Virus record (IMG/VR): IMGVR_UViG_3300005805_000116
Location: 1-53,239 of that record
DNA length: 53,239 bases
Reading direction: 5' to 3' (one strand)
Source: a virus
Lineage: Duplodnaviria; Caudoviricetes
Positions 11,117 to 49,013 of this stretch are shown here, piece by piece. Below the pieces are notes generated by a model, which saw nothing but the letters and a program-made list of their open reading frames with translations, did not search any database and was not told the DNA's origin. The position numbers and the translations under genes were made by a program. Position 1 is the stretch's first letter; every line of letters begins with the position of its first letter.

Positions 11117-11337
11117 CCTTCATCATCTTCTTCATCAAAGTCGTCTTCTTCAGAAAAATATTCAGCATCATCAAAATCATCATACTCATCAAAGTCTTTT
11201 AGAAACGGCCTCTCATCAACCACAGTCACACCTTCACCACAGAAAGGACAACACTGAGGAGAATGTTTGCCTTTGTAAGTGATAGTGAATTTAAGATCAC
11301 ACTCGTAACACTCGACTTCTTTCTTGGCTTTCTTCAT
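11113..11337 (-). CDS. Zinc-ribbon protein with acidic tail
   Basis: CYEC...CPFCG followed by a D/E-rich C-terminus. Confidence 0.65.
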   Translation of the reverse strand: MKKAKKEVECYECDLKFTITYKGKHSPQCCPFCGEGVTVVDERPFLKDFDEYDDFDDAEYFSEEDDFDEEDDEG

Positions 11338-14724: not shown

Positions 14725-15738
14725 TTACACTTTTCTCCACTGTGTAAACTCAAGCTGGGCGCTCAATCCAGAAAAAGTTCTGTTGCTTATTGTTTCGACA
14801 AGTTCGTTTACTGGCAGTCCAGACAAGATCATGTCGTTGATATCTTTTTCCACGATAGAAGGTGGCCATATACAAACAGAACAGCCAGAAGATATTGCAT
14901 CACTCATGAGATTAACAATGTCTCTGTTTCGAGGCTCATTATCATAAACCAAAACTGCATTAACACGAGTCTTGAGCTTAGAAATGACAGAGCGAAGATC
15001 TGAGTTTGCGGCGGCGATACAGTTTGGCAAAAACAGACTATCGATGGGGCCCTCAACAACGTAAACAACATCTGTGTAATTGAGTTTGTCTAATCCATAC
15101 ACCAAGTCGGTATTGGAGCTGGCCCTAATTGTTATATAACGCAAGCTCGATTCTGCAAAAAGAGAGCGACCTTGAAGTCCTATAACACAATCATTCTCGT
15201 CAAAAAATGGTATGACAAGTCGAACATCATTCTTGCTAAGATTTGTATACTTGCCAGGAAACACATCATCAACCAGTGCAGCAAAATCTTCAGTAAAGAA
15301 CAGTCTTGAAAGTTGCTCTTTAGGTATCTTTCGGTTCAATACATACTGTTTAGCATAGTGCAGATCATCAAGCTCAGTCAATTTGACTGCGTGTTTGCTA
15401 GTGAGTGTTGAGAACTTGACTGCAACTAGCTTCGATACTGGCTCAGATGTTTTGTTATTCGTAACACCAGACTTATATTTCTCAAGCAAAAACTCATCAT
15501 AATATGCAGGAAAAAGCTGCTTGAGAAAATTAGCTACGCCCATACCAGCAGAACAGTTATGGCACTTGTAGTACATCGACTGTCCCTTCTGATAGAAGAA
15601 GCCTCTAGCTTTGCTTTTTTTCTTTTCGCTGTCTCCGCATATAGGACACGAGCAGTTATACAAAGAAGTCTTTTTCTTCTTGAAGTTTCTGAGATTAGGA
15701 CCGACGAGAGAAATATACTTAAGATCAATATGCAGCAT
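14725..15738 (-). CDS. 61: DNA primase (T4 gp61-like)
   Basis: CPICGDS..KARG..YKCHNC zinc finger; VVEGPIDSLF; YDNEPRN; KDINDM. Confidence 0.95.
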   Translation of the reverse strand: MLHIDLKYISLVGPNLRNFKKKKTSLYNCSCPICGDSEKKKSKARGFFYQKGQSMYYKCHNCSAGMGVANFLKQLFPAYYDEFLLEKYKSGVTNNKTSEPVSKLVAVKFSTLTSKHAVKLTELDDLHYAKQYVLNRKIPKEQLSRLFFTEDFAALVDDVFPGKYTNLSKNDVRLVIPFFDENDCVIGLQGRSLFAESSLRYITIRASSNTDLVYGLDKLNYTDVVYVVEGPIDSLFLPNCIAAANSDLRSVISKLKTRVNAVLVYDNEPRNRDIVNLMSDAISSGCSVCIWPPSIVEKDINDMILSGLPVNELVETISNRTFSGLSAQLEFTQWRKV

Positions 15739-17171: not shown

Positions 17172-17519
17172 TTAGTGAATTGTCTCATCACTCCACTCAG
17201 CAAACGTGGGCTCACCTGAACTAATAGAACTCAAAAATGACTTGGCATCGTCCTTAACCATATTTGACAATGCGCGAATTTTTGCAGCAACTCGATGAAA
17301 CTCAATAAAATTACCATCGGCAAAATGCTTATCAAGCTCGTCAATATACTCCCTCTGTTTGTCTATCGCAGGAAAATACGATTCAAGTCTGGTGCTATAC
17401 TCATGGCCGGCTCCATACTTCAGTAAAAACTGATCATATGCCTGAACAACCGAATACTCAAGCTCTGTTACTGTGCGCGAAAGAAGGGTGATGATTGTTT
17501 GAAAATCTTCTGGATTCAT
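17172..17519 (-). CDS. Hypothetical protein
   Basis: 115-aa helical ORF in operon. Confidence 0.6.
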   Translation of the reverse strand: MNPEDFQTIITLLSRTVTELEYSVVQAYDQFLLKYGAGHEYSTRLESYFPAIDKQREYIDELDKHFADGNFIEFHRVAAKIRALSNMVKDDAKSFLSSISSGEPTFAEWSDETIH

Positions 17520-17845
17520 TATTGCACCATATCGTTACTTTTACCAAAAATGACTGTTGTACAATCTGCTTTAATCGTGAGGCCCTTTTCTACTATTGTG
17601 CAAAGAAAAATTCCCGCATCAAATGTTCTTTGCTTTAGTACGCTTATCTTATCTTCATCTACAACATTCAGTGTTGCTTCGATTTGATCGTTGATCATGA
17701 CAACAATATTTCCTGGCTCGTCGCTGATGAATTTTGTAATTGCACCGTAGATTGGATACAACTGACCAACCTCAACATCACGATACTCTAGTGAGAGACC
17801 CAAATCTGTGAATAGATCTTTTTCGTTTTGTGTTTTATCGTCCAT
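17519..17845 (-). CDS. Hypothetical protein
   Basis: ORF preceded by AATAAATA (17851-17858) 5 nt before ATG 17845 and by TGcTATACT at 17872-17880. Confidence 0.6.
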   Translation of the reverse strand: MDDKTQNEKDLFTDLGLSLEYRDVEVGQLYPIYGAITKFISDEPGNIVVMINDQIEATLNVVDEDKISVLKQRTFDAGIFLCTIVEKGLTIKADCTTVIFGKSNDMVQ

Positions 17846-17903
17846 AACCATATTTATTCTGTTGTCTGATTAGTATAGCAGGCTGCTTACCAAAAACAAC
17901 AAA

Positions 17904-18260
17904 TTAACGTCGAGCTATGGCAAACTTCTTTCGCCTAAAAACGATTGGCTCTTTTAATCCGGCCACGTTGCCTCCAGAAATGGAATTGGCTGGAACTTCT
18001 TCTTCAACAGCTTTGAGTTTTGTGTAGTAGTCTGGCTTTTCTTTGAGATGTGCGAGTACGATTTTGGCAAGATCTTTCTTAGAATCAACCACATCCAATT
18101 TACCACCATCGTCGTGCTCAGATTCAACGGAGAGACCTTTTATGAACTCATCAATATCAACTTTGTTCCAATCAACATCCAAAGAGTCACCAAGAGACTT
18201 TGCATCATCTTTGCTAAATGTCTTCTGTGCTTCTGCTATGAATGTTCTAAACGAAATCAT
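17904..18260 (-). CDS. DUF5661-like protein with capsid-targeting-like N-terminus
   Basis: MISFRTFIAE; G..VE.EH...KIVLAHLKEKPDYYTKL; C-terminal EEVPANSISGGNVAGL. Confidence 0.65.
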   Translation of the reverse strand: MISFRTFIAEAQKTFSKDDAKSLGDSLDVDWNKVDIDEFIKGLSVESEHDDGGKLDVVDSKKDLAKIVLAHLKEKPDYYTKLKAVEEEVPANSISGGNVAGLKEPIVFRRKKFAIARR

Positions 18261-18673
18261 ATCTTTCTCAGTGCTGTAATGATGCCCTGATCTAATGGAA
18301 TGTTGGTGCTGATTATGGGGTCTTCTCCAACACCCGTTAATACTTCTGGCATGTAACTAAGAAACACCAAGAACGTTTTGAGTTGTGGCCAAAACTGCTC
18401 TTCTATCTTAAAGAAAAGCATTTTGGTTGCTTGTGTGCCAAATGAGTTGTAAAGAATAATCAAGTGATTGAGTATCAATCTCTCTTTCAATTCACCCGAA
18501 GAAACATATCTGCTGAACAGTCTCTTGATGTACTTGATCCGCTTTATGTCATCATTGAACTCATCAATGTTTAAGCATTGAGGGTTCTGATAATGCTTCA
18601 TCGCAAACATTATGAAGTTTTGCTCGGTTATCCGTAGCTGCATATTTTCATAAGGCGCATCAAGCATAATCAA
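18257..18673 (-). CDS. Conserved T4-like phage hypothetical protein
   Basis: FAMKHYQNPQC, RIKYIKRL, LKERLILNHLIILYN. Confidence 0.7.
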   Translation of the reverse strand: MIMLDAPYENMQLRITEQNFIMFAMKHYQNPQCLNIDEFNDDIKRIKYIKRLFSRYVSSGELKERLILNHLIILYNSFGTQATKMLFFKIEEQFWPQLKTFLVFLSYMPEVLTGVGEDPIISTNIPLDQGIITALRKI

Positions 18674-18685
18674 AAAGTGCGTTGC

Positions 18686-18991
18686 TTAATCGCCGCCGAC
18701 TCCCAAATCAGTCTCAACCGTGTCGCTACCAGCAGCATCTCCTGATTCTGATACTGGAGCGTCTGCAAGAGAAATCAAAAGCTCAGCCTTGACTCTATCA
18801 CCAGACTTTTGTATCAGATACCAGCCAGGACCTGTGATACCCTTCTTCTTGTTATCTGCGTTAGATGCTTCAGCATTGTCGATCAAAACCAGCTTCTTGC
18901 CAGACTTGTCCTGAGCAAGTGTGCCATCCGGATTCAACTTAACAAACTTAGGCTTGTCGGCAGTCGCGTCTTTCTTTCCCCAAAGTGCCAT
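18686..18991 (-). CDS. Hypothetical, probably late/virion-associated protein
   Basis: MALWG..D start, GITGPGW and RVKAELL motifs; late promoter CATAAATA at 19020-19027; AGGAG RBS. Confidence 0.6.
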   Translation of the reverse strand: MALWGKKDATADKPKFVKLNPDGTLAQDKSGKKLVLIDNAEASNADNKKKGITGPGWYLIQKSGDRVKAELLISLADAPVSESGDAAGSDTVETDLGVGGD

Positions 18992-19022
18992 ATTAGACTC
19001 CTATTAGTAAGTGTGTTTGTAT

Positions 19023-19592
19023 TTATGTATATCCAAGTCTTTTCAATTTGTTTATCACCGCAGGGCCAGATGTGGCCTGAACTGCTATGCCTCCGGCGGA
19101 GTCATACTCAGAGCAATTCTTGTCATAGTCATCGATGAGAACAGTCGGACGACCATTCACAACGGCATAGTTTTTCTTCTCAGATCGAAGAACTAGATGT
19201 ATTGAAGATAGGTTACTATTTCCCAAATTCTTGGAAAGCCAACGCTTCTTGCCTTCTTTACACACATCTCCAGCAAGAGAACCACATGCACTTAGTATAT
19301 GTGGTTTGTACTTCTTGACGAAATTCCATATTGCTTTGCCATCTGGCATCCAAGGTAAATTCTCCCAAAAGTTGGGTGTGTTGTTAAGGATGTCCCACTT
19401 AATTTTGTCTGCTTCTGACTCAGAGTATTTGTTCCAATGATCTGCGTGCCACTCTGGATGTCCGGCTGCTGCAAGAGCTTTGTTCGCACCTTCCATCCAA
19501 TTAACTATCGTTTCGTCCATGTCAAGATAGATGTCGGGTAACTTTGTTGCGACAGCTACATCTTCTTGAATGTAGTCACGAAACGATTTCAT
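19023..19592 (-). CDS. HAD-family 5'(3')-deoxyribonucleotidase-like phosphatase with capsid-targeting-like N-terminus
   Basis: IYLDMDETI, FWENLPWMPDG, GKKRW, LIDD; N-terminus MKSFRDYIQE. Confidence 0.8.
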   Translation of the reverse strand: MKSFRDYIQEDVAVATKLPDIYLDMDETIVNWMEGANKALAAAGHPEWHADHWNKYSESEADKIKWDILNNTPNFWENLPWMPDGKAIWNFVKKYKPHILSACGSLAGDVCKEGKKRWLSKNLGNSNLSSIHLVLRSEKKNYAVVNGRPTVLIDDYDKNCSEYDSAGGIAVQATSGPAVINKLKRLGYT

Positions 19593-19595
19593 ACA

Positions 19596-20303
19596 TTAAG
19601 CATCGACAGTAGAAGACGCATGAACTAGAGCAGCATCGACAGCTTCATTAAACTCCGGAAGTCCCTGAACAAGAGTTCTAAGATCCGCAACAGACACGGC
19701 ACCAGGCAAACTGACTGGAGGATAGATTCGAGTTCCTTCGTTTGTTGCATACTGAAGAAGAAGTCTATACTGAGTAACACCAGTGTAAGGATCTGTATCG
19801 TGAATTACGTCAGCGTGTTTAGGAGTTGCGACAAGTGTGTTTGCTACACCTACAGCACCGTTGGTTGCGATCTCATTTGCACCGAGGGCGACACTCTCTT
19901 TCATAGCAGCCTTTATTGCTTTATCTTTTGCTCCAAGATACTCTTGGGAGCTCGTCTCGACTTCGCCATCTCCGTCGTGATCTTTGTCTGCCTTTTCATC
20001 TTCATCAAGCTCTTTCTTCTTTTCACTAGACTCATCACCATCCTTGTGATAAACGGAATCACCTGGCATGTCGTCTTCTTCTACTTCACCACAGTGACAA
20101 TCAGACTCAGAAAGTCTGAGCTGTGTCCATGCGTGAAATGCTTTCTGATCAGATTCGGAGAGATCAGACACACTCTTGACACCGAAGTGCTTAAGTCCTT
20201 CAGCAACAACTTTCTCCACTAGCTTATTGTGATTCTCGGAACTCTGTGTGAACACTTCAACAACTGAGTTGATCAATGATTGCGACAAGTCTTTGATTGG
20301 CAT
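19596..20303 (-). CDS. Acidic hypothetical protein, probably head core/internal protein
   Basis: DKDHDGDGEVETSSQEYLGAKDKAIK motif; several (L/M)xE sites. Confidence 0.5.
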   Translation of the reverse strand: MPIKDLSQSLINSVVEVFTQSSENHNKLVEKVVAEGLKHFGVKSVSDLSESDQKAFHAWTQLRLSESDCHCGEVEEDDMPGDSVYHKDGDESSEKKKELDEDEKADKDHDGDGEVETSSQEYLGAKDKAIKAAMKESVALGANEIATNGAVGVANTLVATPKHADVIHDTDPYTGVTQYRLLLQYATNEGTRIYPPVSLPGAVSVADLRTLVQGLPEFNEAVDAALVHASSTVDA

Positions 20304-20310
20304 AACATTC

Positions 20311-21189
20311 CTAGTTAAAAAAATCCTTGAAACTGAGTAGCTTTCTCGTTGAGACAATCTCGAAAAAGGTTCTTTCCTCTTCTGTATTTAGCTTATCAAG
20401 ATCGAATTCTGTCTCACACCAAATAGGACGATAGTGTAATGTGAACTCTTTTGGCACTAGAACGATTTGTCCAGTTGTTCTCATAGAGTTGCGCTCAGGA
20501 TCTACACGCAGAGGGTTTAATTGTGGATTCTCATCTGAAGTATCGGACATGGCATCAAGAAATTGATCGAAGTCCTTTGCTCTTTTCAGTGCTTCTACCA
20601 CCTTCTCATATCTCTTCTCTGAAGAATCTCTTTTTGGAACTTGCTCTGGTATCTCCCTGCTGTAGCCTGTCCAAGGAAGATAGATTCCATGGTTCGTTCT
20701 AACAGCAATCTTCTCTTTAGGTATCTCAACTATCTTGTAAACGTACTCATCATTCTCAACAAATGCACCCTCAAGAAGAAAGCAGCGATCTTTGTCTGCG
20801 ATGATAGTGTTGCCTGGAATCTCAAGCTCGATCAATTTTCTTGCAGCTTCGGCTGCCGTTCTTTCAAACAACGCAGTTCGTATTCGTAGACCGTCAGGTG
20901 CGTAGTATGTTCTATTTTTAATCTTAGCTTTTTTGTCGAGCTTGCCTTTGTTGACTGCGGCAGCTCCTTCAGCTTCATCTTCTTTGACTGTAACGCTGGC
21001 ACTTACTATGGCAACGCCAAACTCGTTAATTCCTTCTGTGTACTTCGTGCGCTCGTCCCAAATATACAAACGCTCTGTATTCTGTCTGAACGATTTGCGA
21101 ATGAGAATGGTAGGCTTGTAATTGCGATCTCTGTTCTTTGCAATTACCCAACCAATGTCTTCAAAATACTTACAAGCAACAACGCACAT
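20311..21189 (-). CDS. N-terminal nucleophile (Ntn) cysteine hydrolase (C45/NRDE-like)
   Basis: Met-Cys start, AKNRDR, EGINEFG, VRTNHG. Confidence 0.72.
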   Translation of the reverse strand: MCVVACKYFEDIGWVIAKNRDRNYKPTILIRKSFRQNTERLYIWDERTKYTEGINEFGVAIVSASVTVKEDEAEGAAAVNKGKLDKKAKIKNRTYYAPDGLRIRTALFERTAAEAARKLIELEIPGNTIIADKDRCFLLEGAFVENDEYVYKIVEIPKEKIAVRTNHGIYLPWTGYSREIPEQVPKRDSSEKRYEKVVEALKRAKDFDQFLDAMSDTSDENPQLNPLRVDPERNSMRTTGQIVLVPKEFTLHYRPIWCETEFDLDKLNTEEERTFFEIVSTRKLLSFKDFFN

Positions 21190-21374
21190 TAGCTCTTCTT
21201 CTTATAGTCTGTCTGATAGAACCCAGTACCTTTAAACTGTGGTGTTCCAGTAACAGATATAAGACGGTCTACTTTAGCTTTGCAAGTAGGACACTTCTTC
21301 AATGGCTCATCACTGATTTTTTGACGAACCTCAATCGTACCACAATTTTTACACGCATACTCGTATAAAGGCAT
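21189..21374 (-). CDS. FmdB-family zinc-ribbon protein
   Basis: MPLYEYACKNCG...CPTC...FKGTGFYQTDY. Confidence 0.88.
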   Translation of the reverse strand: MPLYEYACKNCGTIEVRQKISDEPLKKCPTCKAKVDRLISVTGTPQFKGTGFYQTDYKKKS

Positions 21375-21398
21375 ACAAGTAGTATTTAGTGTAAAGAA

Positions 21399-21701
21399 TT
21401 ACTGTGTTACTGTAGTGTCGGCAGACTCAGCAGTTACCTCGGTGCTATCTGTAGTTGTAGTTCCAAGGTTTGCTTTTCCGATTAGAGAGTTTGCTACAAC
21501 AGCGATTGTGTCAAGAGCCTGTGACCACTGATTGGTCAAGAACCCAGGAACACGATCAAAGTTTGAGAAGAACTGATGTGCGGCTCGGAGGGCATTGATC
21601 TCCTGCTCTGTCGTGAGCGAAGGTGTCGTAGTAACTTCTGGAGCGGAAGTGGCTTCAGTAGTCGTCTCAGTTGCAGTGGATTCAGTCGTCTTTGTTGTCA
21701 T
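21399..21701 (-). CDS. Thr/Glu-rich hypothetical protein
   Basis: Low-complexity termini; late promoter AATAAATA at 21755-21762; GGAG RBS. Confidence 0.6.
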   Translation of the reverse strand: MTTKTTESTATETTTEATSAPEVTTTPSLTTEQEINALRAAHQFFSNFDRVPGFLTNQWSQALDTIAVVANSLIGKANLGTTTTDSTEVTAESADTTVTQ

Positions 21702-21757
21702 GATATTACTCCAAAATAAAATTAAGTGTACAAAGTTTCGTCACACAACGCAAGTAT

Positions 21758-22744
21758 TTATTGTCCAGGTGTTGCAGCTTTGTAAGTTTTTACGAGAACT
21801 AGAGTACCATCTTCCAAATACTCAGGCACATACTCAACATCTGAATCTTCTTCTGTAGATTCTTGCTGCTTTGCGTTCTTCTCGGCGTCTTTTTGGATCT
21901 GCTTTTGCTTTCTCTCGTTTTCTTTCTGTCTGAAGTCTGCTTCTCTCGCCTTTTCCAGTTCTCTATCGTGGCGGGCTTTGATCTCGTCATTCTCTCTATC
22001 TTGTTTATCTCTAGTCTTATCTACGGTCGAGGGCGGTTTGCTTCCCGATGACGGCTCTTCTGATATGAATGTTTTGAATGATTTCATGATTGTATTTATA
22101 GAAGGTGTTGTGATGATAGGTTTCTGCACAGATTCGACAGACTCTTTAATTCCAAGATTTTTTCTAACCAAATTGAATAACTCTTTGGCGTACTTTTGAC
22201 TTAGGCCAGATGGCACGCCCGTCTTAAATGTGTTGAAGTCTTTATTCTGGGCCGCTTCGCGCATCTTAGTTCCGCTAATTCCTGCTACACCCTCATCATC
22301 AGGATCTCTATCTCCGGCACTTACTGCATCAAAAGAATCGAGATCAAAACTCTTTTCAGGATCGGGATGATTTACATAAGTGAGAAAAGTTTTCTTCATC
22401 TCGTTTACTCTGTCCGAGCCAGCAACAAGAATGACATCAGTATAACCTTTGTCTTTAATGTATCCCAATGCATCAAACGGTGTTCGTATTGAAGTATTAT
22501 ATACAATACAAGAGGCGGCTTCAGGCACACCGAGCTTAAGATATTTGACTTTATCTTTTGCACTCAATGGATTCTTCTTTGTGTCTTGAGTATGAGACAC
22601 GAAGACAAAAGGTGTTGCGCCATTCTTAGAAGCAACATCAACAACTTTCTTGATTAGCTTCTCGTGGCCAGTGGTAGGTGGATTCATCCTACCGAAGGCA
22701 AAAACTGCCGTCTTTTTACCTCTGACCTCATTCAAAGATTTCAT
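21758..22744 (-). CDS. HIGH-family nucleotidyltransferase (cytidylyltransferase/NMNAT-like) with charged C-terminal extension
   Basis: FGRMNPPTTGHEKL, KNPL, VAGSDR, SAGDRDPD, ISGTKMR. Confidence 0.82.
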   Translation of the reverse strand: MKSLNEVRGKKTAVFAFGRMNPPTTGHEKLIKKVVDVASKNGATPFVFVSHTQDTKKNPLSAKDKVKYLKLGVPEAASCIVYNTSIRTPFDALGYIKDKGYTDVILVAGSDRVNEMKKTFLTYVNHPDPEKSFDLDSFDAVSAGDRDPDDEGVAGISGTKMREAAQNKDFNTFKTGVPSGLSQKYAKELFNLVRKNLGIKESVESVQKPIITTPSINTIMKSFKTFISEEPSSGSKPPSTVDKTRDKQDRENDEIKARHDRELEKAREADFRQKENERKQKQIQKDAEKNAKQQESTEEDSDVEYVPEYLEDGTLVLVKTYKAATPGQ

Positions 22745-22745
22745 A

Positions 22746-23012
22746 CTAATTTGTGTGCGCTACTTTTGAGGCGAACACTGTATCTCCAGGAGTTCCTGCA
22801 GGAACACTGAGCTTATGCTCTGCCGATTTTTGAAGGATGACGGACTCTAGAGGAACTAAAGTTAAACTACCAACAGTAGTATTTGATGAATCTACTATAG
22901 ACAACTCAACGGACGATGCTCCAGTATTAACAATCCGGACCGCTGTTGCTTTATCAACAGTTGTAGATTCGTCAGATAGATCTGCTTGCAATCCTAAAAC
23001 TTTTACTGTCAT
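22746..23012 (-). CDS. Hypothetical beta-rich protein
   Basis: 88-aa ORF with AGGAG RBS. Confidence 0.6.
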   Translation of the reverse strand: MTVKVLGLQADLSDESTTVDKATAVRIVNTGASSVELSIVDSSNTTVGSLTLVPLESVILQKSAEHKLSVPAGTPGDTVFASKVAHTN

Positions 23013-23026
23013 ACTATTCTCCTTTG

Positions 23027-24307
23027 CTATACATCCTTATCTTTGTCATTTATACGAGACTCAACAACTCGAACCTTGTTGTCTTTTTTATTCCAAACAA
23101 ATCTATCTGCGGACGCGGTCGAGGAGGCTTCTATTGTGCCACTTTCCACATCTATAACATATGTGAATTTGGAATTTGCTGAGGAGCCTGTAAATACTGG
23201 GCGACCTGATGCCGATTTGTCTGGAACAAAATTACTAACTTTTTCGGGTGCGCCAGTTGTTCTGATAAACTTATTAAACAGCTTTGCTGCTTGAGACACA
23301 TCTACAGCCTCGTTTACAGATCTAAGTCTATAGTAAACCGACTCTGTATCTTTGGGGTTAGATCCCCATTGAATTTTGACATCGATTACACCATCAGGCT
23401 TTGTCTTGATGTCGAACTTTCTGTAGCCATAAGGAATCAAGTATTGCTTAATTGCATCTTCTGGATTGTGTCCTCGCAGATTGACAACGCCACCAACCAG
23501 CTTCTTTGTTCTAGGACCATCTAGTATGTCAAATGAGTGAAATATCTCAGCAGGGCTTTCTGTCAACTTTGACACAGGCTTGTTGCTCCACATTTTGCAG
23601 GACCAATATCGTGCTTTCCATTTAGGTCCTGGATCATCACAGTTATGTCTTGCTCTAAAATTAGATCTCTTGCTGTCGCTGTCTCTCTTGATCTCCATGT
23701 CTGGGTCACCAAAAGTGACTTTGACTACGTTACCCTTATCATTCTTAACATAGACAGCAAACTTCTTCGGACCGTCTGGTGTTCTGAACGGCTTGTTGAG
23801 AGTTACCTTTTTACCCTCATGCTCTGCGTCTTCTTGTATATCATCTTCACCCTCTTTCATGCAAGATCCCTTTTCGTATGGCTTCTTGCCTGGAGTTGGC
23901 TTGTAACCATCCCAACAACGCTCGTTGACTATAGCAACACCACGAGGTCGTTTCAAGTCAGGCATTCCTATAAACGAATCAGACACCATGAAGAGGTTCA
24001 CATACGCATCTCTATCATCAGATTCGATGGAAGAATCTTCTAGCTTAATAATCGTCTTGAGAGAAGAGACTATCTGCGATGCGAGCTTCTTTGCTAGACT
24101 TCTATTTTTAGTTCCGTGGTCGCCTGGCTTAGCAATCTCACCTCTAGTGACAGGGCCAATAACATCAAAAGATAGTGACAACAAGTTGCTATCATGCTTA
24201 ACTCGTATCTGATTGGGAAAATTATTGTCTAGGATAGAAACAATCTTTCGTGCTACATCTTCTGGAGTCACAGACGACTCTTTCAAAAATTCATTGAACT
24301 TCTTCAT
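23027..24307 (-). CDS. Multi-module putative internal virion protein containing a DUF6321-like domain
   Basis: MKKFNEFLKE start; CWDGY...GSC module; LNKPFR..KKFAVYV..FGDP..FRARHNC..ARYWSC module. Confidence 0.62.
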   Translation of the reverse strand: MKKFNEFLKESSVTPEDVARKIVSILDNNFPNQIRVKHDSNLLSLSFDVIGPVTRGEIAKPGDHGTKNRSLAKKLASQIVSSLKTIIKLEDSSIESDDRDAYVNLFMVSDSFIGMPDLKRPRGVAIVNERCWDGYKPTPGKKPYEKGSCMKEGEDDIQEDAEHEGKKVTLNKPFRTPDGPKKFAVYVKNDKGNVVKVTFGDPDMEIKRDSDSKRSNFRARHNCDDPGPKWKARYWSCKMWSNKPVSKLTESPAEIFHSFDILDGPRTKKLVGGVVNLRGHNPEDAIKQYLIPYGYRKFDIKTKPDGVIDVKIQWGSNPKDTESVYYRLRSVNEAVDVSQAAKLFNKFIRTTGAPEKVSNFVPDKSASGRPVFTGSSANSKFTYVIDVESGTIEASSTASADRFVWNKKDNKVRVVESRINDKDKDV

Positions 24308-24651
24308 CTCTTTCCCCCATCATATTGAACAGCATGACCCTCGGAGATGAGGAGCTTGTTGATGTTAATGTTGTCCTTATCGTGAATAATTGCCAAAAAT
24401 CTACCATACTTCTCAGTGACATCTTTAACAGTTTCAACAAACACAATCTTACCTTCTATCAACTCTTTAAGTCTGGCTTTTGCGGCGAGCCCCTTGGCTT
24501 TCTCTTCTTTGTTTCTAGTTCTAGTTTCAGGAGTATTTATTCCGTGCAGTCTTATACGAATTTTATGTGAGATGTCAAATCCTAAGTCAATCTCTGCGTC
24601 TATCGTGTCGCCATCTATCACTTCCAAAACTCTTGCGTAGTATTGAAACAT
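24304..24651 (-). CDS. Thermonuclease (SNase-like)
   Basis: VIDGDTID, IRLHGINTPE, KYGRFLA, LISEGHA. Confidence 0.9.
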   Translation of the reverse strand: MFQYYARVLEVIDGDTIDAEIDLGFDISHKIRIRLHGINTPETRTRNKEEKAKGLAAKARLKELIEGKIVFVETVKDVTEKYGRFLAIIHDKDNININKLLISEGHAVQYDGGKR

Positions 24652-24653
24652 AA

Positions 24654-25865
24654 CTACCAGTCTTTGTCTGATGTGAAATTTGCTCTACTGAACTCAAGTC
24701 TGTCAACGAGCTTGTACGCTTTTCCAATCTTGTCGATAGCAACGAAACCTTCTGGTGAAGTGACTTTATATCCATCGGGAGTTTCAAGAAAAGTGCCTAT
24801 CGAATTTACTCGCCTGAGCTTGTTGATGAAGATGCCCTTCACATCTTCTATAAGAGCTGCCACAAGAAACATAGACACAAGGTCTTTTTGATTGCTCTTT
24901 ATGAATCGAAGAGTTTGTTTCAGTTGCTCTTCTTTGCCGGTTTTGCCCCTATCAGTCTTCAGAGTTTCAATCTCATCAGAAAATTTCTGTTGTATGAAAT
25001 CTACAAGACCGGTGGCATACTTTTTAGTACCAGCGATTCTTTCGCCCGCTCTAACTTTAGAATTTACATACTCTTTGATAAACGCTTTCAACTTTTTGTC
25101 AGACACTATTGACGCAACTGCGCTTGCATTTAGATCTTTGATTAGAGAGTTTAGATCAGCAAGTCTTTCTGAGACGTAGTTCGTTTCGTCTTTGGTGAGT
25201 GTTGCGGCACCAGAGGCATCTCTAAAGTATGCATCTTGCACCCACACTTTGTTGCTTTTAAGACCAGACACATCAGCACCAAATGACGCTTTCATGTCTT
25301 GAATTTTTTTACCACTGTATGTTGTGTGAAAAACAATTCCAAGGTTTGCGCTTAGTATGTCTGCTGCAAGGGCGCTGTTTGCTGGCACTGCATATCTAAT
25401 TGTGTTTGCCTTGAATGATACATATTCTTCGCCGTTGTATTCCATTGACTCAACGGAGCCTTTGATGAACAAAAGATCGCCTTGAATAACGCCTCTGATT
25501 CCTATGTTCTTCAGATTCGCAAGGCACACTTTTAGTTTTTGTGCGAGGGCACCTTCGTAGTTTTTGTCGATGTCTCTATCTGTATAGTTCAACTTTGGTT
25601 CTTTGTTGAACGCAGACTTTGTGCCGACGAAGAATTTACCATTTTCTGGATTGATTCCACAAACTACTGCGGGGGCGCCATCCCATTTTACTGTTACGTT
25701 CACAGAAGACTTTGAAGATCCTGACAACATACTCTTCAGTCCGCGTAGAAACGCAAGGGCAGACTTTGCGCCAGGGACGCCTGCATTAAACACATCATCT
25801 TCAAGATGCTCAAGATGTGTATTTTTGTTGGCAGACTCTTTAAGGTACTGTCTAAACGTTTTCAT
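24654..25865 (-). CDS. Conserved T4-like phage protein (DUF6267-like; ligase-like KxDG motif)
   Basis: KNTHLEHLED, TVKWDGAPA, FFVGTKS, IQGDLLF, PEGFV, KLVDRLEFS; N-terminus MKTFRQYLKE; late promoter at 25891-25898. Confidence 0.72.
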   Translation of the reverse strand: MKTFRQYLKESANKNTHLEHLEDDVFNAGVPGAKSALAFLRGLKSMLSGSSKSSVNVTVKWDGAPAVVCGINPENGKFFVGTKSAFNKEPKLNYTDRDIDKNYEGALAQKLKVCLANLKNIGIRGVIQGDLLFIKGSVESMEYNGEEYVSFKANTIRYAVPANSALAADILSANLGIVFHTTYSGKKIQDMKASFGADVSGLKSNKVWVQDAYFRDASGAATLTKDETNYVSERLADLNSLIKDLNASAVASIVSDKKLKAFIKEYVNSKVRAGERIAGTKKYATGLVDFIQQKFSDEIETLKTDRGKTGKEEQLKQTLRFIKSNQKDLVSMFLVAALIEDVKGIFINKLRRVNSIGTFLETPDGYKVTSPEGFVAIDKIGKAYKLVDRLEFSRANFTSDKDW

Positions 25866-25981
25866 TGGTCATAGTGTAACACAGACCAAGTATTTATTAG
25901 TATAGATTCGCTATCAAATTCAGAACGATGGCAAAAAGGAACGCGAATAAAATGTATGTGATGTGCTCTCTTTTAGTTGGC

Positions 25982-26875
25982 TTACGCATCATAGTTCCTG
26001 ATTATGGTTTCGGAAACGCTCTTTCTCGATGATACTTGAGCGCCAACTTTTCTGTTTATGGATATAGTCTCCACTTTATAGTCTTTGTACAGCTCAAATA
26101 CGATTGGTGCTGAAGAGTTTGATTGCATCCATTTAACACCCAGAGAGTTTAGCTTGTCACAAAAATCTTTCAGCTCTAGCTGATCTTTCATTGTGAAGCC
26201 ATCTTTGTTGTACTGCACAAATGATGAAGATACAGAAATAGGAATGTAAGGAGGATCTAAGTATACAAAAACTGTTCGACCAAGATTGATAAGGGAGCGA
26301 ATATCATTCAAAACAGATGTGTAACTCTTAGTATCTACGAAGACGGCTGGACGACACAAGACAGAATTACATGCAAAGATGTTCTCGGCGTCAACTATCT
26401 TAGGATTCTCGTAATGCCCGTAGTGAGCATTGAATTGACCATGTGAGTTTACTCTATACAGTCCGTTGAATGATGTTTTGTTAAGATAGATAAATCGAGC
26501 TGCTTTTTGTATTGGTGACCACTTCCACACATAGTCATCGTTTCTGTCTGCCGCACGAACTTCAAGAAAGTGCTCTTGTGTGTTCTTATGCTTGGATAGC
26601 TCTTCTATCAGAAGTCTAGGATTTGTTTGTATAGCTTTGTATGCTGTGATGAGTTCTTCGTTTTTGTCACTCAAATATGCCTGTGAAATTCTATGCGCTA
26701 GATGAAAGAAGAGAGCCCCTCCACCAAGAAATGGCTCAAAATAGACATCAATCTTTTGAGGCAAACGAGAATCTAATTCAGGCAAGAGTCTGCGTTTGCC
26801 GCCTAACCATTTAACGAAGGGCTTTGCTTGAACTGTGTCGCAATCTTTTTGTTCATCAGAATTGGAAATCATCAA
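25982..26875 (-). CDS. dam: DNA adenine methyltransferase (Dam family)
   Basis: KWLGGK, EPFLGGG, FNGLYRVN, YLDPPY, SNS. Confidence 0.92.
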   Translation of the reverse strand: MMISNSDEQKDCDTVQAKPFVKWLGGKRRLLPELDSRLPQKIDVYFEPFLGGGALFFHLAHRISQAYLSDKNEELITAYKAIQTNPRLLIEELSKHKNTQEHFLEVRAADRNDDYVWKWSPIQKAARFIYLNKTSFNGLYRVNSHGQFNAHYGHYENPKIVDAENIFACNSVLCRPAVFVDTKSYTSVLNDIRSLINLGRTVFVYLDPPYIPISVSSSFVQYNKDGFTMKDQLELKDFCDKLNSLGVKWMQSNSSAPIVFELYKDYKVETISINRKVGAQVSSRKSVSETIIRNYDA

Positions 26876-28274
26876 ATCCGCTCTTGTCGCGCTTTTCAGC
26901 TTTCATACTAGACCCGAACTTGCCTTTGTCAAACGTTGGACTATCGTCAACTTTTAGGTCTGTGTTTACTAACTCAGCTTGTGCAGAGTCATCTAAATCA
27001 AATAGCTTCATCTTGGATCTGTCAATACCTAGAACAAATCTCTTAAGTGAAGAAACGTCATTATAGCGATTTTTTAGCTGTTTCACAAGTATTTGTCCCA
27101 TCTGCTCAAGCTCTTCTGTTGTGGAAAGAGCAATCATGAAATCTGCTGTGGCAGGAAGACCAAACGATTCTGATGTGTTCTCTAAACCAATGTCGCTCGA
27201 AACATAACCCTGTCTATTTGTTTGTGTTGCAGTCCACAAAGGAACGTTACACTCTACAGCCAAACCACGAAGTTCTTCAGCTATGCTCTTGATGTATGTG
27301 TAGCTGTTGACATGGTTTGTGTTGTTGATTCTTGCTGAGGCTGCTATGTTTAGATAGTCAACAAAGATAACATCTGGAACAAAATTCTTTTTCAGAGACA
27401 GCTCATTCAACAGTGCTCGAAAGTGAGTTGTTGTTGCGGTCGCTGTTGGATACTCTTTCACAATCAGTCTACCCACTGTCTTGCTTCTGATTGCATCAAT
27501 CTTCTTGTCGTACATGTCTTTAGAAATCTTCTGAAGATCTGAAAGAGATACGTTCAATAGGTTTGCGTCTATTCGTTCTGCGATTCTCTCTTCTGCCATT
27601 TCAAGTGTAATGTAGAGTATGTTCTTACCTGTCATGAAATAGCTCGCAGCCATGTGACATAGTGCAAGAGACTTTCCAACAGCAGTTCCAGCTAGTATAA
27701 CATTGAGAGTCTTTCTAGGAACGCCGTTTTTTGTGATCTTATTCATACACTCAAGATCGAACGGGAACTTCTCTTCAACTCGATGGTAAGATTCATATCG
27801 AGCGTCAGTGTCGTCTAGATAGCTGTGACCTACATTAGGATCAAAAGACACTGCTAGTGCGTCTGTGAGCATCTTGGGTATGTTGCCGCGACTAAACTTA
27901 CTCTTCTTGTCATCAGCAATTTTTATGCTGTTTAAGAGTGCGTTGTAGATTGCTCTGTCTTTGCACCACTCTTCTGTCTGCTCAATAAGCCATTTATCAT
28001 CAACTTTGCTCTGCTCGAACGATACGATGATGTCTCTTGCGGCGCTCTCAACTTGTGAGTTGATCTTGTCATCTTTTGTTAGAGCTATCAGAAGGGCTTC
28101 TTTGCTTGGTCGATTTTCGTACTTCAGTATGAACTCAGAAATCTTCTCAAAAACAACCTTTTCAGAAACTTCTGTAAAATATTCACCCTTAAGAAAGGGA
28201 AGAACCCTGCGTGAGTATGAATCATCGAAGACAAGATTCTTCAGTATGATTCTCTCGACTCGATCATTTATCAT
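26856..28274 (-). CDS. 41: Replicative helicase (T4 gp41-like)
   Basis: AGTAVGKS, TLEMAEE, IVKEYPT, VDYLNI, ESFGLPATAD, KQLKNRY. Confidence 0.95.
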   Translation of the reverse strand: MINDRVERIILKNLVFDDSYSRRVLPFLKGEYFTEVSEKVVFEKISEFILKYENRPSKEALLIALTKDDKINSQVESAARDIIVSFEQSKVDDKWLIEQTEEWCKDRAIYNALLNSIKIADDKKSKFSRGNIPKMLTDALAVSFDPNVGHSYLDDTDARYESYHRVEEKFPFDLECMNKITKNGVPRKTLNVILAGTAVGKSLALCHMAASYFMTGKNILYITLEMAEERIAERIDANLLNVSLSDLQKISKDMYDKKIDAIRSKTVGRLIVKEYPTATATTTHFRALLNELSLKKNFVPDVIFVDYLNIAASARINNTNHVNSYTYIKSIAEELRGLAVECNVPLWTATQTNRQGYVSSDIGLENTSESFGLPATADFMIALSTTEELEQMGQILVKQLKNRYNDVSSLKRFVLGIDRSKMKLFDLDDSAQAELVNTDLKVDDSPTFDKGKFGSSMKAEKRDKSGFDDFQF

Positions 28275-29679: not shown

Positions 29680-30786
29680 CTACAAGTCGTCAAAGCTCAT
29701 CGTCTTCTTAGTAGACCAATTTATTGCATCCAGAATGATCTTGAGAGGGTCCAGAAAAGTTTTTTCGAACTGCAACTCATAGTCAACATACTTGTGTAAG
29801 TTCAACTCTTGCGGCAATCCATCTTCTGACATTGTGATCACATTTTGTTGAATGTGATTAGGCGTTCTCAAGTATATAAACTTTATCTTATCACCTTCTT
29901 GGATGCAAGGGTATTTCATCTCTAGCTTCTTCTCTTTGATTAGCTTGTTGTAGACGAGGGCGCCACGAACGTGGATGGGAGTGCCTTTTTTATATACAGA
30001 CTTGCCATCAGAGTATGTGGAGATGCCATTACAACCGCGAGGGAACGCAATATCTTCTGGAGACAGCTTTTTGAACTCGCTCTTGAATGTATCGATGTAT
30101 GTGTACAGATCGCTCTGTGTTTTTGTCAGAATGAGATTTACGGCATCTTTAATCTTCTGGCGACACACTTGAGGTGTTGATGATTTCACAGCTTCGATAC
30201 CTTGTATCTTGAGCTTGGGTGTCTCGTAGCGAACACCCTCATTGTCGTACACATTCAGAATGTAACGCTTCTTTGCTGTCCAGATTGCCTTGTCGGCGAT
30301 AGACTCTCGCTTCATCTGCATCTTTTGGGAGCGGGCGTTCATGTATTCTTTGAGATCTTTGCAGCTTTTGTCGATGACTGACTGAATCTTGGTGTTGGAT
30401 ACTTTATCGAGGAATTCTACTATCTTGCTTTTGTCGTCTGGTAGATTTTTGTTGTATGCGGTCTGCACGAGCGACTTGAGATTCAGATAGATCGAGTCAG
30501 TATCGATGGCGATAACATAATCAAGATTGATAGTCTTTAGCAGAGTGTTCAGATATGCGTTGATGTCTTTTGCGAGCCACTGAATGACAAGCTGTCCTGA
30601 CATAGTGACGGCTTCTGCGAGTCGCGTGTCATAGAAACGAAAGTATTGATTACCCATCGCACCATAAGCCGAATTGAGCTGAATCTTTTTCGTGAGCTGA
30701 AAGTTGTGATACTTAGAAATGTCGAACGACAACTTTCTGGCATACGCCTTTAGTTCTTCGTTTGACAGCTTTGTTATGTCTTGCAT
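29680..30786 (-). CDS. 43: Family B DNA polymerase, C-terminal subunit (gp43B)
   Basis: KIQLNSAYG (motif B), IDTDS (motif C), KKRY, KSSTP. Confidence 0.92.
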   Translation of the reverse strand: MQDITKLSNEELKAYARKLSFDISKYHNFQLTKKIQLNSAYGAMGNQYFRFYDTRLAEAVTMSGQLVIQWLAKDINAYLNTLLKTINLDYVIAIDTDSIYLNLKSLVQTAYNKNLPDDKSKIVEFLDKVSNTKIQSVIDKSCKDLKEYMNARSQKMQMKRESIADKAIWTAKKRYILNVYDNEGVRYETPKLKIQGIEAVKSSTPQVCRQKIKDAVNLILTKTQSDLYTYIDTFKSEFKKLSPEDIAFPRGCNGISTYSDGKSVYKKGTPIHVRGALVYNKLIKEKKLEMKYPCIQEGDKIKFIYLRTPNHIQQNVITMSEDGLPQELNLHKYVDYELQFEKTFLDPLKIILDAINWSTKKTMSFDDL

Positions 30787-30788
30787 GT

Positions 30789-31394
30789 CTACCTATCGTG
30801 TGCTGATGATAACACAATAGAATCAAACCCGTCATCAAAAAACATGTGTAGAATTTTTTGCCAATGATGGAATGGTATATCATTCAACGGAATCATCAAT
30901 TCTGTTTTCTCTCCACAGTGATTAAAGTCTTCGGCATCAGCTTGAAGAAGATTGTGTCGGGCACAATAGCTTTTTATCATGCGCTCGTTTTCTCTAAGCT
31001 GCTTCATGGGACCCTTTCTTATATACAGGGCACCAGAGTATTTCCATTCATCGGATGTGCATGTGAATCTCTCTGCAACTTCAAAGAACAAAGTAGTGCC
31101 TATTTTAGGATGTATAAGCTGTGATTTTACGTTATGAAAACCACACAAATATAATGTACCAAGCTCTTTCGCCGAGCCATCAGAAAAGCCTCTGAGATAG
31201 TAGTGTCTCCATCGACGGTAAATAGACTCTCCGGTTGCCTTGTTGATGAATCTCAATTTCGTTTCGGCAAGAATGTTTGACTTTGAGTTAAAATGCGCCA
31301 TGTCTAGAACATAGTTCTTGTTTGAAGACATCAGCGACATTTTGATAAACTCTAGTATGTCTGCTTTGTTTTTGGGTCTATTTTTGTAGCTCAT
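30789..31394 (-). CDS. Putative GIY-YIG (T5orf172/Seg-like) endonuclease between the polymerase halves
   Basis: GTLYL...KIGTT...ERF...E..I...GEKTE spacing resembles the GxxY/KIGxT/R/E/GxTE pattern. Confidence 0.5.
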   Translation of the reverse strand: MSYKNRPKNKADILEFIKMSLMSSNKNYVLDMAHFNSKSNILAETKLRFINKATGESIYRRWRHYYLRGFSDGSAKELGTLYLCGFHNVKSQLIHPKIGTTLFFEVAERFTCTSDEWKYSGALYIRKGPMKQLRENERMIKSYCARHNLLQADAEDFNHCGEKTELMIPLNDIPFHHWQKILHMFFDDGFDSIVLSSAHDR

Positions 31395-39555: not shown

Positions 39556-40116
39556 TTACTTGCTCTTTTTCTGCAACTTTTCGAAGAATCCTTTGGACAT
39601 AAGCCCTTGTGGCTCTTCGACAGACTCGAACGTAAATGTTCTATGTCCTTTCATCTGTGTGTAGTACGATCCCACTTTGTTTGCAGACCATTTACCGACA
39701 CTAACTTCAGTGTTTAATCCTGGCCAGCGACCTGAAGCAGTGCCAATCAAAATGGCATCGTCACGGGATGCATCTTTGTATAGTACGGAATCTTGATCAT
39801 ACTTGACACCACTTCGCATAAGAAAGTGTTTAAGTCTGCCAGAATCGTTTGCGGAAGAAATGACAAGAAATGACTTCTCTCGAACTTTTCTCTCTTCGGG
39901 TGTGCCTGGATTCTCTACATAAAATCCTGTGACTGATACATACCCAAATCCAGCGGAGCGAATGTCAGAAACTAGCTGAGAGTTTCGCTTCTCATTCTGC
40001 TCGACTGGATACTGTCCTCGATATGCAGTGATCATGCCCATGTTGGATTCTTGAGAATGTTGATAGATGCGAGATAAACTCGACTCATGCAACATCTTGT
40101 CTTTAAATCCAAACAT
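39556..40116 (-). CDS. Conserved phage hypothetical protein
   Basis: ESSLSRI, ITAYRG, N..RN..L..DI...G.GY, EKSF, QDSVL; N-terminus MFGFKDKMLHE. Confidence 0.65.
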   Translation of the reverse strand: MFGFKDKMLHESSLSRIYQHSQESNMGMITAYRGQYPVEQNEKRNSQLVSDIRSAGFGYVSVTGFYVENPGTPEERKVREKSFLVISSANDSGRLKHFLMRSGVKYDQDSVLYKDASRDDAILIGTASGRWPGLNTEVSVGKWSANKVGSYYTQMKGHRTFTFESVEEPQGLMSKGFFEKLQKKSK

Positions 40117-48431: not shown

Positions 48432-49013
48432 TCACTCGTCGATTGTGTCAATAATCTTTTCGAAGCCAACTTTCTTGGTGGGCTTCTTCTTACTCTTGAT
48501 TTTACGTTTCTTCTCTTCTTGTGTACGTTCAAAGTTCTGTAAGAACTCATGCATGTTTGCATCGGCATAATCACTTCCGTACTTCTGATTAGAATTTATG
48601 CCATCTGAATCTCCAGAAAGATCACTAAGAGACTCTTCAATGATTCTATACTTAGTGGCAAGGTGCTTCTTCTCCTTCTGTATACGTCTCACAAATGCGA
48701 AATAGATAATCTGTGTGAAGTATGCAAAGGGGTTTGATGACTTCTTTGGATTGAAATTGTTAAGATACTGAAGAGAGTTTTCTATGCCATCTGAAATCAT
48801 CTCTTCTCTAAAAGGGTAATTAACAAAGTTAGGCTTGTTTGCGAGCTTGTTTGCGATTGAGACAATACACTCACCGATGTAGTTTGATATCTGCGGAGCT
48901 GGTTTCTTGTCCTTCTTTGCTTTCTTAACAGCAGCAATATGAAGTTTCATCTCTTTAAGAAACTCTGGGTTGTTGACGTAGTGTAGTTTTTTGCCGGAAT
49001 CTTGTTTCACCAT
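48432..49013 (-). CDS. 55: Late-transcription sigma factor gp55
   Basis: HYVNN, PNFVNY..REEMISDG, NPFAYFTQI, FVRRIQKEKK. Confidence 0.95.
   Translation of the reverse strand: MVKQDSGKKLHYVNNPEFLKEMKLHIAAVKKAKKDKKPAPQISNYIGECIVSIANKLANKPNFVNYPFREEMISDGIENSLQYLNNFNPKKSSNPFAYFTQIIYFAFVRRIQKEKKHLATKYRIIEESLSDLSGDSDGINSNQKYGSDYADANMHEFLQNFERTQEEKKRKIKSKKKPTKKVGFEKIIDTIDE

Follow-up and report, generated by a model that had tools for sequence, protein, structure and literature searches.

The stretch of DNA analysed here, called the window below, is 53,239 nucleotides (nt) long (IMG/VR virus record IMGVR_UViG_3300005805_000116; Duplodnaviria, Caudoviricetes), and its long open reading frames (ORFs) lie on the minus strand throughout. 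Flanked by a helicase gene (26856-28274) and a primase-like gene (14725-15738), it carries a cluster of genes in which five protein starts have the same kind of ten-residue leader, referred to here as the tag. The tag reads MKTFRQYLKE at the start of a DUF6267 protein (25865), MKKFNEFLKE at the start of a modular protein of 426 amino acids (aa) (24307), MKSFRDYIQE at the start of a HAD nucleotidase (19592) and MISFRTFIAE at the start of a DUF5661 protein (18260). The fifth copy, MKSFKTFISE, begins at an internal methionine (22087), residue 220 of the ORF 21758-22744, and would start a small charged protein. The five carriers are unrelated to one another. All five copies had been picked out in an earlier annotation of the same DNA (the original prediction), which likened them to the capsid-targeting sequence of phage T4, and each was found where it had been placed, on the minus strand.

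The original prediction also proposed a motif scan. Run over six frames of the window, the strict pattern M-[KI]-x-F-x-x-[FY]-[IL]-x-E returned those five starts and no others, all on the coding strand, four at ORF starts and one at the internal methionine; the seven-residue core, F..[FY][IL].E, occurs seven times in total. Scored with a position matrix made from 110 distinct tags of relatives (two of the window's own clusters, P0121 and P0241, were left out, and Phe at position 4 is fixed by the matrix construction), the four tagged ORF starts reach 19.3-30.8 bits and the next best of the 72 ORF starts -13.6. The individual scores include 30.8 bits for the DUF6267 protein, 20.7 for the DUF5661 protein and 19.3 for the 426-aa protein; the nested methionine, at 20.0 bits, ranks first of 15,253 internal positions, with a runner-up at 11.1. 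Two weaker motifs of the original prediction are present but fared poorly by this measure: MFGFKDKMLHE (40116) scores -21.6 bits, and MKSLNE (22744) falls outside the top 14. Codon choice at the fixed residues differs among the five copies, and the DNA upstream of each is unrelated, so the tag is a selected peptide and not a DNA repeat.

The consensus over 171 tagged homologues, which come from three protein families, reads M-K-T/S-F-R/K-Q/T-Y/F-L/I-T/K-E, where positions 1, 4 (Phe) and 10 (Glu) are fixed by the rule used to select the set. Position 7 is Tyr or Phe in 168 of the 171, position 8 is Leu, Ile or Val, and positions 3, 5, 6 and 9 vary. In AlphaFold2 models of the DUF6267 and 426-aa proteins, residues 4-11 form a short helix in both, at low confidence in the former (predicted local distance difference test, pLDDT, below 50 for residues 1-18) and moderate confidence in the latter (mean 63 for residues 1-10). 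An NCBIfam search gained nothing for the tagged proteins. The decapeptide is almost certainly a functional, portable N-terminal signal.

The capsid-targeting sequence (CTS) is textbook knowledge in the T-even phages. The T4 leader reads MKTYQEFIAE (10.1101/2021.01.19.427310), and its residues 4 and 7 serve mainly for targeting and residues 8 and 10 for processing (PMC9026906). CTS-like leaders have been noted in the T2 and T6 relatives, and the leader has been considered a possibly general loading route for various proteins in T4-like phages (PMC9026906). The four positions mapped in T4, together with Met1 and Lys2, are the conserved ones in the tag family of the window, and the claimed likeness to the T4 sequence thus stands at the positions whose function has been mapped. 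Searched over the whole T4 genome, the pattern M-x-x-[FY]-x-x-[FY]-(NTN codon)-x-E matches at three places, where ipII, ipIII and gene 61.1 begin; the reversed control has no match. With the matrix from the aquatic phages, the ipII and ipIII leaders score +5.6 bits even with Tyr at position 4, gp61.1 scores 25.4 bits, and neighbouring T4 genes score -31 to -43. Gene 61.1 (NC_000866.4, 18966-19130, minus strand) encodes a 54-aa hypothetical protein that starts MKTFKEFIKE, which matches the tag in full; it adjoins the primase gene, in the interval between helicase and primase genes where the aquatic phages have the cluster.

The tag lies outside the domains that it precedes. The Pfam models start downstream of it, at residue 15 for DUF6267 and residue 20 for DUF5661. 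Among the 120 closest homologues of the DUF6267 protein, the strict tag stands at residue 1 in 103, and the core lies within 22 residues in 118; the DUF6267 proteins of S-SZBM1, S-SM1, S-PM2 and HTVC008M are tagless and begin directly at the domain, and that of a T4-like phage of soil Stenotrophomonas has the leader MMKFTQFLAE. The HAD family has 43 tagged members among the 58 closest homologues, as against one among 30 distant ones. Untagged NT5C-type relatives begin 5-10 residues ahead of the catalytic DxD, and in tagged homologues the tag and a Thr/Ala/Val-rich linker of variable length are inserted. Other phages have it on cytidylyltransferases or NMNATs (S-SM1, S-SZBM1, S-CREM2 and S-SCSM1), a kinase, an S-adenosylmethionine (SAM) hydrolase, a P-loop kinase and small proteins encoded between the terminase genes. 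Judged from these families, the tag is an add-on, which other phages place on other enzymes.

Two further observations concern the leaders of relatives. In two uncultured relatives (L013:2275 and L014:2479), a tagged (MKSFKDYIFE), P-loop nucleotide-kinase-like protein of 187 aa is encoded directly downstream of DUF6267. Distant HAD homologues (P0310, P0314, P0316, P0319 and P0322) have a second type of leader ahead of the domain, MKLL(L/M/F)ENWR(K/E/Q)(Y/F/I)(L/I)x(E/I); this leader, which has Trp for the Phe of the tag and is longer by four residues at the front, may be a variant of the label.

Tagged proteins have been detected in the virions of related phages. In four cyanophages with published virion proteomes, six of nine tagged starts are among the detected proteins, compared with an expectation of about 1.6 (P 0.0014), a count from which two in-frame pattern matches of S-SCSM1 (72277, minus strand, and 194172, plus strand) were left out. 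In S-CREM2 the pattern picks out three annotated starts, gp6 (SAM hydrolase), gp14 (APH/ChoK-like kinase, with a GTG start) and gp154 (cytidylyltransferase), and one internal site in NrdA that is not a start. Mass spectrometry found 52 of the 219 proteins, all three of these among them (hypergeometric P 0.013; Table 3, PMC10665884), gp6 with 19 and gp14 with 21 unique peptides (PMC10665884). They are also three of the four enzymes that the authors flagged as unexpected in virions; the fourth, gp12, has LRFASFMAE at residues 17-25. Two near-matches, gp13 (MKDLHSFLTE) and gp136 (MQTFSMFFSE), were likewise detected in virions.

The other cyanophages give a similar picture. The only genome-wide match in S-SM1 is its cytidylyltransferase (MKKFSAFLNE), which Sullivan et al. 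found in virions (PMC3037559). The tagged NMNAT of S-SCSM1 (MKSFLQFLKE) is annotated as a virion protein, and the cytidylyltransferase of S-SZBM1 (MRFRQFIIE) is virion-detected. S-PM2 fits the pattern as well: its DUF6267-cytidylyltransferase fusion is tagless, and according to Sullivan et al. it is encoded but was undetected in S-PM2 virions (PMC3037559). The original claim of packaged enzymes has support from virions of related cyanophages, where the tagged proteins include the nucleotidyltransferase family, but the nucleotidyltransferase of the window lacks a scoring tag of its own.

In the 426-aa protein (23027..24307, minus strand), the kind of site in which the tag ends recurs between modules. 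Its modules span residues ~11-129, 130-250 (RCWDGYKPTPG and a phrog_7595 module, the phrog_7595 match covering residues 159-240), 251-333 and 334-416, and their joints read VNE129, LTE250, VNE333 and VVE416. The tripeptide [ILVM]-x-Glu occurs in the whole protein at residues 8-10 (the end of the tag), 127-129, 150-152, 157-159, 248-250, 331-333 and 414-416. Homologues cover 19-100% of the protein and differ greatly in length, with high identity within the pieces that they have in common; in some of them DUF5661 or a C45-type hydrolase domain is attached, and the window encodes each of these two by a gene of its own. The points at which homology breaks off cluster at residues ~127, 148-163, 248-259, 327-336 and 416-423. 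Of 282 such breakpoints, which come from related sequences and are hence not independent events, 74% fall within 5 aa of the six internal [ILVM]xE sites, compared with 15% at random; none of 20,000 permutations reaches 74%, and other tripeptide classes give 0.4-19%. The RCWDGYKPTPG module has [LIV]-x-E directly ahead of it in dozens of differing contexts, and the module that follows it terminates in PVSK-[LIVM]-x-E. The AlphaFold2 model has confident domains at ~12-120 and 251-420 and low-confidence stretches at 121-129 and 243-250; a Foldseek search returned nothing at E ≤0.001, with weak, polo-box-like matches only. On these alignments the 426-aa protein consists of modules strung together at hydrophobic-x-Glu sites of putative protease type, a feature that the original prediction overlooked; it would be loaded as a single chain and then cut at the junctions. 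Elsewhere in the cluster, a 292-aa protein (MCVVAC..., 20311-21189, minus strand) resembles C45-family autoproteolytic Ntn hydrolases (NF040521, E 5.2e-10, below the cut-off); in other phages the C45 domain (PF03417) is fused to the phrog_7595 module.

The DUF6267 protein (403 aa, 24654..25865, minus strand; Pfam PF19782, E 1.1e-115) consists of the tag (codons 25865-25836), a short linker and the domain, which runs from NTHLEHLED. The original prediction called it a ligase-like protein of the KxDG type. A motif of that type, K60-W61-D62-G63 (motif I), is indeed invariant in 32 aligned DUF6267 sequences, but the matches in fold are weak and profile searches gave none. In a structure search, adenylyltransferase domains of RNA and DNA ligases made up 10 of the 50 matches listed, over residues 57-215 or 57-391, at weak Z scores of 4.6-5.7; examples are 6n67 (Z 5.7, root mean square deviation (rmsd) 3.6, 105 residues aligned) and 2hvr (Z 5.0, rmsd 4.6, 132 aligned). 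They are the only non-helical matches to residues 57-215 among those 50. In a wide structural search the matches shown were mostly helical bundles, the best having Z 8.7 over 69 residues. Foldseek against the PDB gave nothing at E ≤0.001 (best ligase match E 0.11), Pfam at E up to 10 gave DUF6267 alone, a PDB profile search gave one chance match and no ligase, and an Atlas search gave unnamed viral clusters only. The C-terminal strands of the AlphaFold2 model have pLDDT below 50. Since the Foldseek, Pfam and PDB profile searches have no significant match, we treat 'ligase-like' as a lead and not as a result.

The nucleotidyltransferase is encoded by the 328-aa ORF at 21758..22744 (minus strand; phrog_3041, E 1.8e-55), a cytidylyl/adenylyl-transferase-like protein of a family that is named cytidylyltransferase or NMNAT depending on the authors. 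Its domain spans residues ~1-205, with the TTGH motif in PPTTGHEKL at residues 22-30; Pfam PF01467 scores 20.1 bits, under the cut-off of 21, and the NMNAT model TIGR00482 has E 0.0038. The N-terminus, MKSLNEV, is untagged, and the original claim of a tagged nucleotidyltransferase survives only in another form, as an in-frame fusion to a tagged module. That module is the nested, highly charged protein of 109 aa (21758..22087, minus strand). In the relative L011, whose DUF6267 protein is 71% identical, its homologue is free-standing (111 aa, MKTFKSFLHE), with CATAAATA 6 nt ahead of the ATG, which argues that the nested frame is a real gene that has merged in frame with the nucleotidyltransferase. 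Three cluster members, drawn from different assemblies, share the fused form of 328 aa. In S-PM2 (NC_006820.1; L091:5998-7777), where the annotation splits it oddly, the DUF6267 frame continues into the cytidylyltransferase (...RLEFSRANFTLEKSW-RPPSGEG-AKVAVFTFGRFNPPTTGH). This natural fusion, together with phrog_455, which spans DUF6267 and the nucleotidyltransferase, suggests that the two proteins work together.

The HAD enzyme (189 aa, 19023..19592, minus strand; phrog_2643, E 7.6e-23) has the tag, a Thr/Ala/Val-rich linker and a catalytic DMDET at residues 24-28. By sequence it matches phage 5'(3')-deoxyribonucleotidases and is a putative enzyme of that type; distant homologues match PF06941, and the protein of the window has no Pfam match. 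The DUF5661 protein (118 aa, 17904..18260, minus strand; Pfam PF18905, E 5.1e-17) has an orthologue in L011 that begins MIPFLAYLKE. Three further genes lie in the cluster. An untagged, 115-aa protein of the staphylococcal nuclease fold (24304..24651, minus strand; Pfam SNase E 2.6e-13, phrog_452 endonuclease E 1.8e-38) is translationally coupled, by 4-nt overlaps, to both of its tagged neighbours, in an operon behind the box at 25891 described below. An 88-aa protein (22746..23012, minus strand) resembles by eye S-SZBM1_195, an abundant virion protein (exponentially modified protein abundance index, emPAI, 2.66); it had no BLAST match, and a homologous ORF of 80 aa is found in L011. A 101-aa protein (MALWGKKD..., 18686..18991, minus strand) is the orthologue of S-SZBM1_136 (BLASTP E 1.5e-12), a cyanophage virion structural protein with emPAI 0.80.

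Outside the cluster, the start at 40116 belongs to a 186-aa protein of the S-AdoMet-lyase family (39556..40116, minus strand; Pfam PF23780, E 2.1e-13). Its N-terminus, MFGFKDKMLHE, ends in LxE and fails the ungapped matrix. The protein shares 34% identity (E 1e-18) with the N-terminal part of S-CREM2 gp6, and the alignment begins directly after LHE in the window and LEE in gp6. Because this homologue is tagged and virion-detected, the start at 40116 is kept as an ambiguous tag.

The sequence NATAAATA has been reported as the late promoter of cyanomyoviruses (PMC2984593). Both boxes of the NATAAATA type and a gp55-type late sigma factor (48432..49013, minus strand; 36% identity, E 2e-38, to S-CREM2 gp153, annotated as a late-transcription sigma factor) are present in the window. 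There are ten copies of ATAAATA on the minus strand and a single one on the plus strand, a total of 11 that is not above chance (mean of shuffles 7.06, with 10 of 100 reaching 11), so the evidence from the boxes lies in their placement and strand bias. Five copies stand 25-29 nt ahead of gene starts: those of UvsW, the DUF6267 operon (box at 25891..25897, 25 nt upstream), the virion-protein orthologue starting at 18991 (box at 19020-19026, 28 nt upstream) and two others. Another copy (21755..21761) is 53 nt upstream of a Thr-rich, 100-aa ORF (21399-21701). These boxes are on the minus strand. Of those named in the original prediction, the ones at 19020, 21755, 22093 and 25891 were found again as ATAAATA, but the one at 21383 is merely CTAAATA.

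The only copy of TATAAATA in the window, at 22093-22100, lies 5 nt ahead of the nested ATG at 22087. A second box close to a start codon (17851-17857, minus strand) overlaps the ATG of the ORF 17519-17851, and the arrangement of boxes almost on start codons is conserved in L011. Should these two boxes be genuine promoters, their transcripts would have little or no leader.

The remainder of the window is consistent with a T4-like phage. By Pfam and pairwise comparison it encodes a replication and recombination module of T4 type with UvsW, gp46/gp47-like nuclease subunits, sliding clamp and clamp loader, and also UvsX, gp41 helicase, a Dam methylase, a class II ribonucleotide reductase and a family-B DNA polymerase. 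The closest named phages are cyanomyoviruses, the Pelagibacter phage HTVC008M and the Methylophilales phage Melnitz, at just 37-44% protein identity, and megablast of the region against the phage collection gave no nucleotide-level match. Cyanophages keep a block of virion-associated genes at the same helicase-primase location as the cluster. The sequencing runs containing this DNA are metagenomes from lakes, rivers, estuaries and reservoirs, and on these labels the habitat is freshwater or estuarine, not oceanic; at least half of the sampled words were present in seven runs, one of which may be the source. There are no RNA runs among those listed as containing this DNA. Proteins of the window recur in identical form on a contig of 149 kb.

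Two features of the replication genes may be mentioned. The family-B polymerase is split into two ORFs (31396-32856 and 29680-30786, minus strand) with a 201-aa ORF (30789-31394) in between, and in the annotation of S-CREM2 a small ORF likewise separates polymerase subunits A and B. The window also has a ribonucleotide reductase of class II (B12-dependent type) and an AAA_5 (CobS/MoxR-like) ATPase (11337-13268 and 38201-39463, minus strand); S-SZBM1, S-SM1 and S-CREM2 are annotated with class Ia NrdA/NrdB instead.

We therefore propose, by analogy with T4 and with a probability of about 70%, that the region at 17.9-25.9 kb is a late-expressed capsid cargo cluster of a freshwater or estuarine, T4-like myophage related to the Kyanoviridae, whose tag loads proteins as in T4. 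The label would bind the scaffolding core while the prohead is being built, and a prohead protease of the gp21 type would then cut after Glu10; the 426-aa protein would probably also be cut at the hydrophobic-x-Glu joints between its modules. The mature proteins would remain in the head alongside the DNA and enter the host at infection. The contig of 53 kb has no structural module, prohead protease or scaffold, and the partner machinery is therefore presumed on the strength of relatives: S-CREM2 (gp143/gp144) and S-SZBM1 (S-SZBM1_177/178) each encode a gp21-family prohead protease and a scaffolding core.

That lack is one of several points that weigh against the proposal. The syntenic relative HTVC008M has no in-frame strict motif in its whole genome, only looser starts of the MKSF/MKTF kind. 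The mature tagged proteins are mostly not small and basic (isoelectric point (pI) 5.0-9.3, up to 426 aa). The tagged small protein S-SCSM1_30 is not flagged as a virion protein. To these should be added the limits given above for the matrix, the breakpoints, the S-SCSM1 matches and the number of boxes, and also the undetected small proteins of S-SZBM1 and the possible co-purification of late proteins in S-CREM2, both taken up below.

The most serious alternative, which we nevertheless consider unlikely, is that the tag directs proteins into the prohead core as mere assembly or scaffold parts, which are degraded and expelled on maturation, so that nothing functional is delivered. Apart from the internal proteins, the core proteins of T4 are broken down once assembly is over (10.1101/2021.01.19.427310), the 426-aa protein has a cut-type site at every module junction, and the tagged small proteins 191 and 192 of S-SZBM1 are absent from the 30 proteins detected in its virions. 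Such a fate is hard to reconcile with the unique peptides recovered from the bodies of gp6 and gp14 in purified S-CREM2 virions, and folded enzyme domains (HAD, nucleotidyltransferase-like, SAM lyase) would be odd as disposable scaffold. The virion data themselves could be read differently, since the S-CREM2 authors raise contamination and say that abundant late proteins may co-purify with virions (PMC10665884). The decapeptide would then work outside the virion, as a translation boost, a signal for stability or degradation, or an in-cell location signal; several tagged genes have no obvious ribosome-binding site upstream, and an N-terminal coding feature could aid initiation. We regard this as slightly less probable again, because the conservation is at the level of amino acids with synonymous variation, the conserved positions are those mapped in T4 for targeting and cutting, the same pattern selects the T4 internal proteins, and the tag ends in the protease's hydrophobic-x-Glu site that recurs at the module junctions. 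That the N-termini are alike by chance, or through recent duplication of the 5' end of one gene, with no joint function, is highly improbable: all five copies do lie inside 8 kb, but the six frames hold only seven core matches of which five are these starts, the DNA of the five copies is dissimilar, and each tag is kept within its own protein family over dozens of homologues.

If the cargo-cluster reading is right, packaged proteins would act ahead of phage gene expression and would thus be prime candidates for counter-defence or host take-over. The specific role put forward in the original prediction, an end-healing or NAD-restoring counter-defence, is doubtful. A broader reading is tentative, at somewhat short of even odds: a single, genome-readable address label may run across the T4 superfamily, from coliphage T4 to the aquatic phages related to the Kyanoviridae, and may load enzymes and cuttable chains of modules as an injected toolkit for the first minutes of infection. 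Its enzyme cargo would include the ligase-like protein and nucleotidyltransferase pair, the nucleotidase, the SAM lyase and kinases. Several laboratories have found NMNAT/cytidylyltransferase-like enzymes, kinases and a SAM hydrolase in cyanophage particles, where they were unexplained and contamination was suspected; a loading tag of T4 type on those very proteins offers a mechanism. It also offers a sequence rule for predicting the capsid-borne proteins of uncultured aquatic T4-like phages, and, if the broader reading is true, the proteins that some of the most abundant aquatic viruses eject could be predicted from sequence alone. The rule would extend the T4 protein-packaging toolbox to other hosts. 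The window adds a freshwater lineage that carries the tag, with a clear candidate for a polyprotein.

A search for the capsid-targeting sequence in cyanophages found just a T4 review, one for DUF6267 found no paper, and one for propeptides and prohead proteases in cyanophages found nothing relevant; Petrov 2010 (PMC2993671) does not mention internal proteins or the CTS. In these searches, which covered open-access papers without their supplements, no paper was found that describes the tag beyond the T-even phages or ties it to virion enzymes.

Among known systems, T4 Alt shows that a T4-type head can take up an enzyme and that the prohead protease can trim it: Alt is an ADP-ribosyltransferase that is packaged in the head, processed by gp21 and injected (PMC9026906). 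No homologue of Alt was seen in the window, whose enzymes come from other families, and alt is reported to be lacking in cyanomyoviruses (PMC2984593). The ejection proteins of giant phages of the SPN3US/phiKZ type follow a common logic, as far as the available descriptions go, with head-internal cargo that includes enzymes and is matured by a prohead protease; their cleavage motifs and propeptides differ from those of the window, a distinction made here by description only. Nearer to the window are the virion NMNATs or cytidylyltransferases, kinase and SAM hydrolase of the cyanophages S-SM1, S-SZBM1, S-CREM2 and S-SCSM1, which carry the same leader. Their nucleotidyltransferase is of the same family and lies in the same neighbourhood, between the helicase gp41 and the primase gp61, although that of the window is itself untagged; the cyanophage papers, in the parts available, report virion detection only and mention neither leader nor loading mechanism.

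The closest comparison is with IPII and IPIII of T4, and the related leader of IPI. The leaders of these proteins, which the gp21 prohead protease cuts, are like the tag ten residues long and stand at the extreme N-terminus. The cargo differs, being mostly enzymes and multi-module proteins of 109-426 aa with pI 5.0-9.3 in the window and small, basic internal proteins in T4, and so do the hosts, since the tags of the window belong to aquatic phages related to the Kyanoviridae. Position 4 is Phe in the window and Tyr in ipII and ipIII, with gene 61.1 of T4 having Phe. The two leaders have in common Met-Lys-Thr/Ser at positions 1-3, an aromatic residue at positions 4 and 7, Ile or Leu at position 8 and Glu at position 10; both are portable between unrelated proteins and stand on late genes, in the window putative ones, and one DNA pattern detects both sets.

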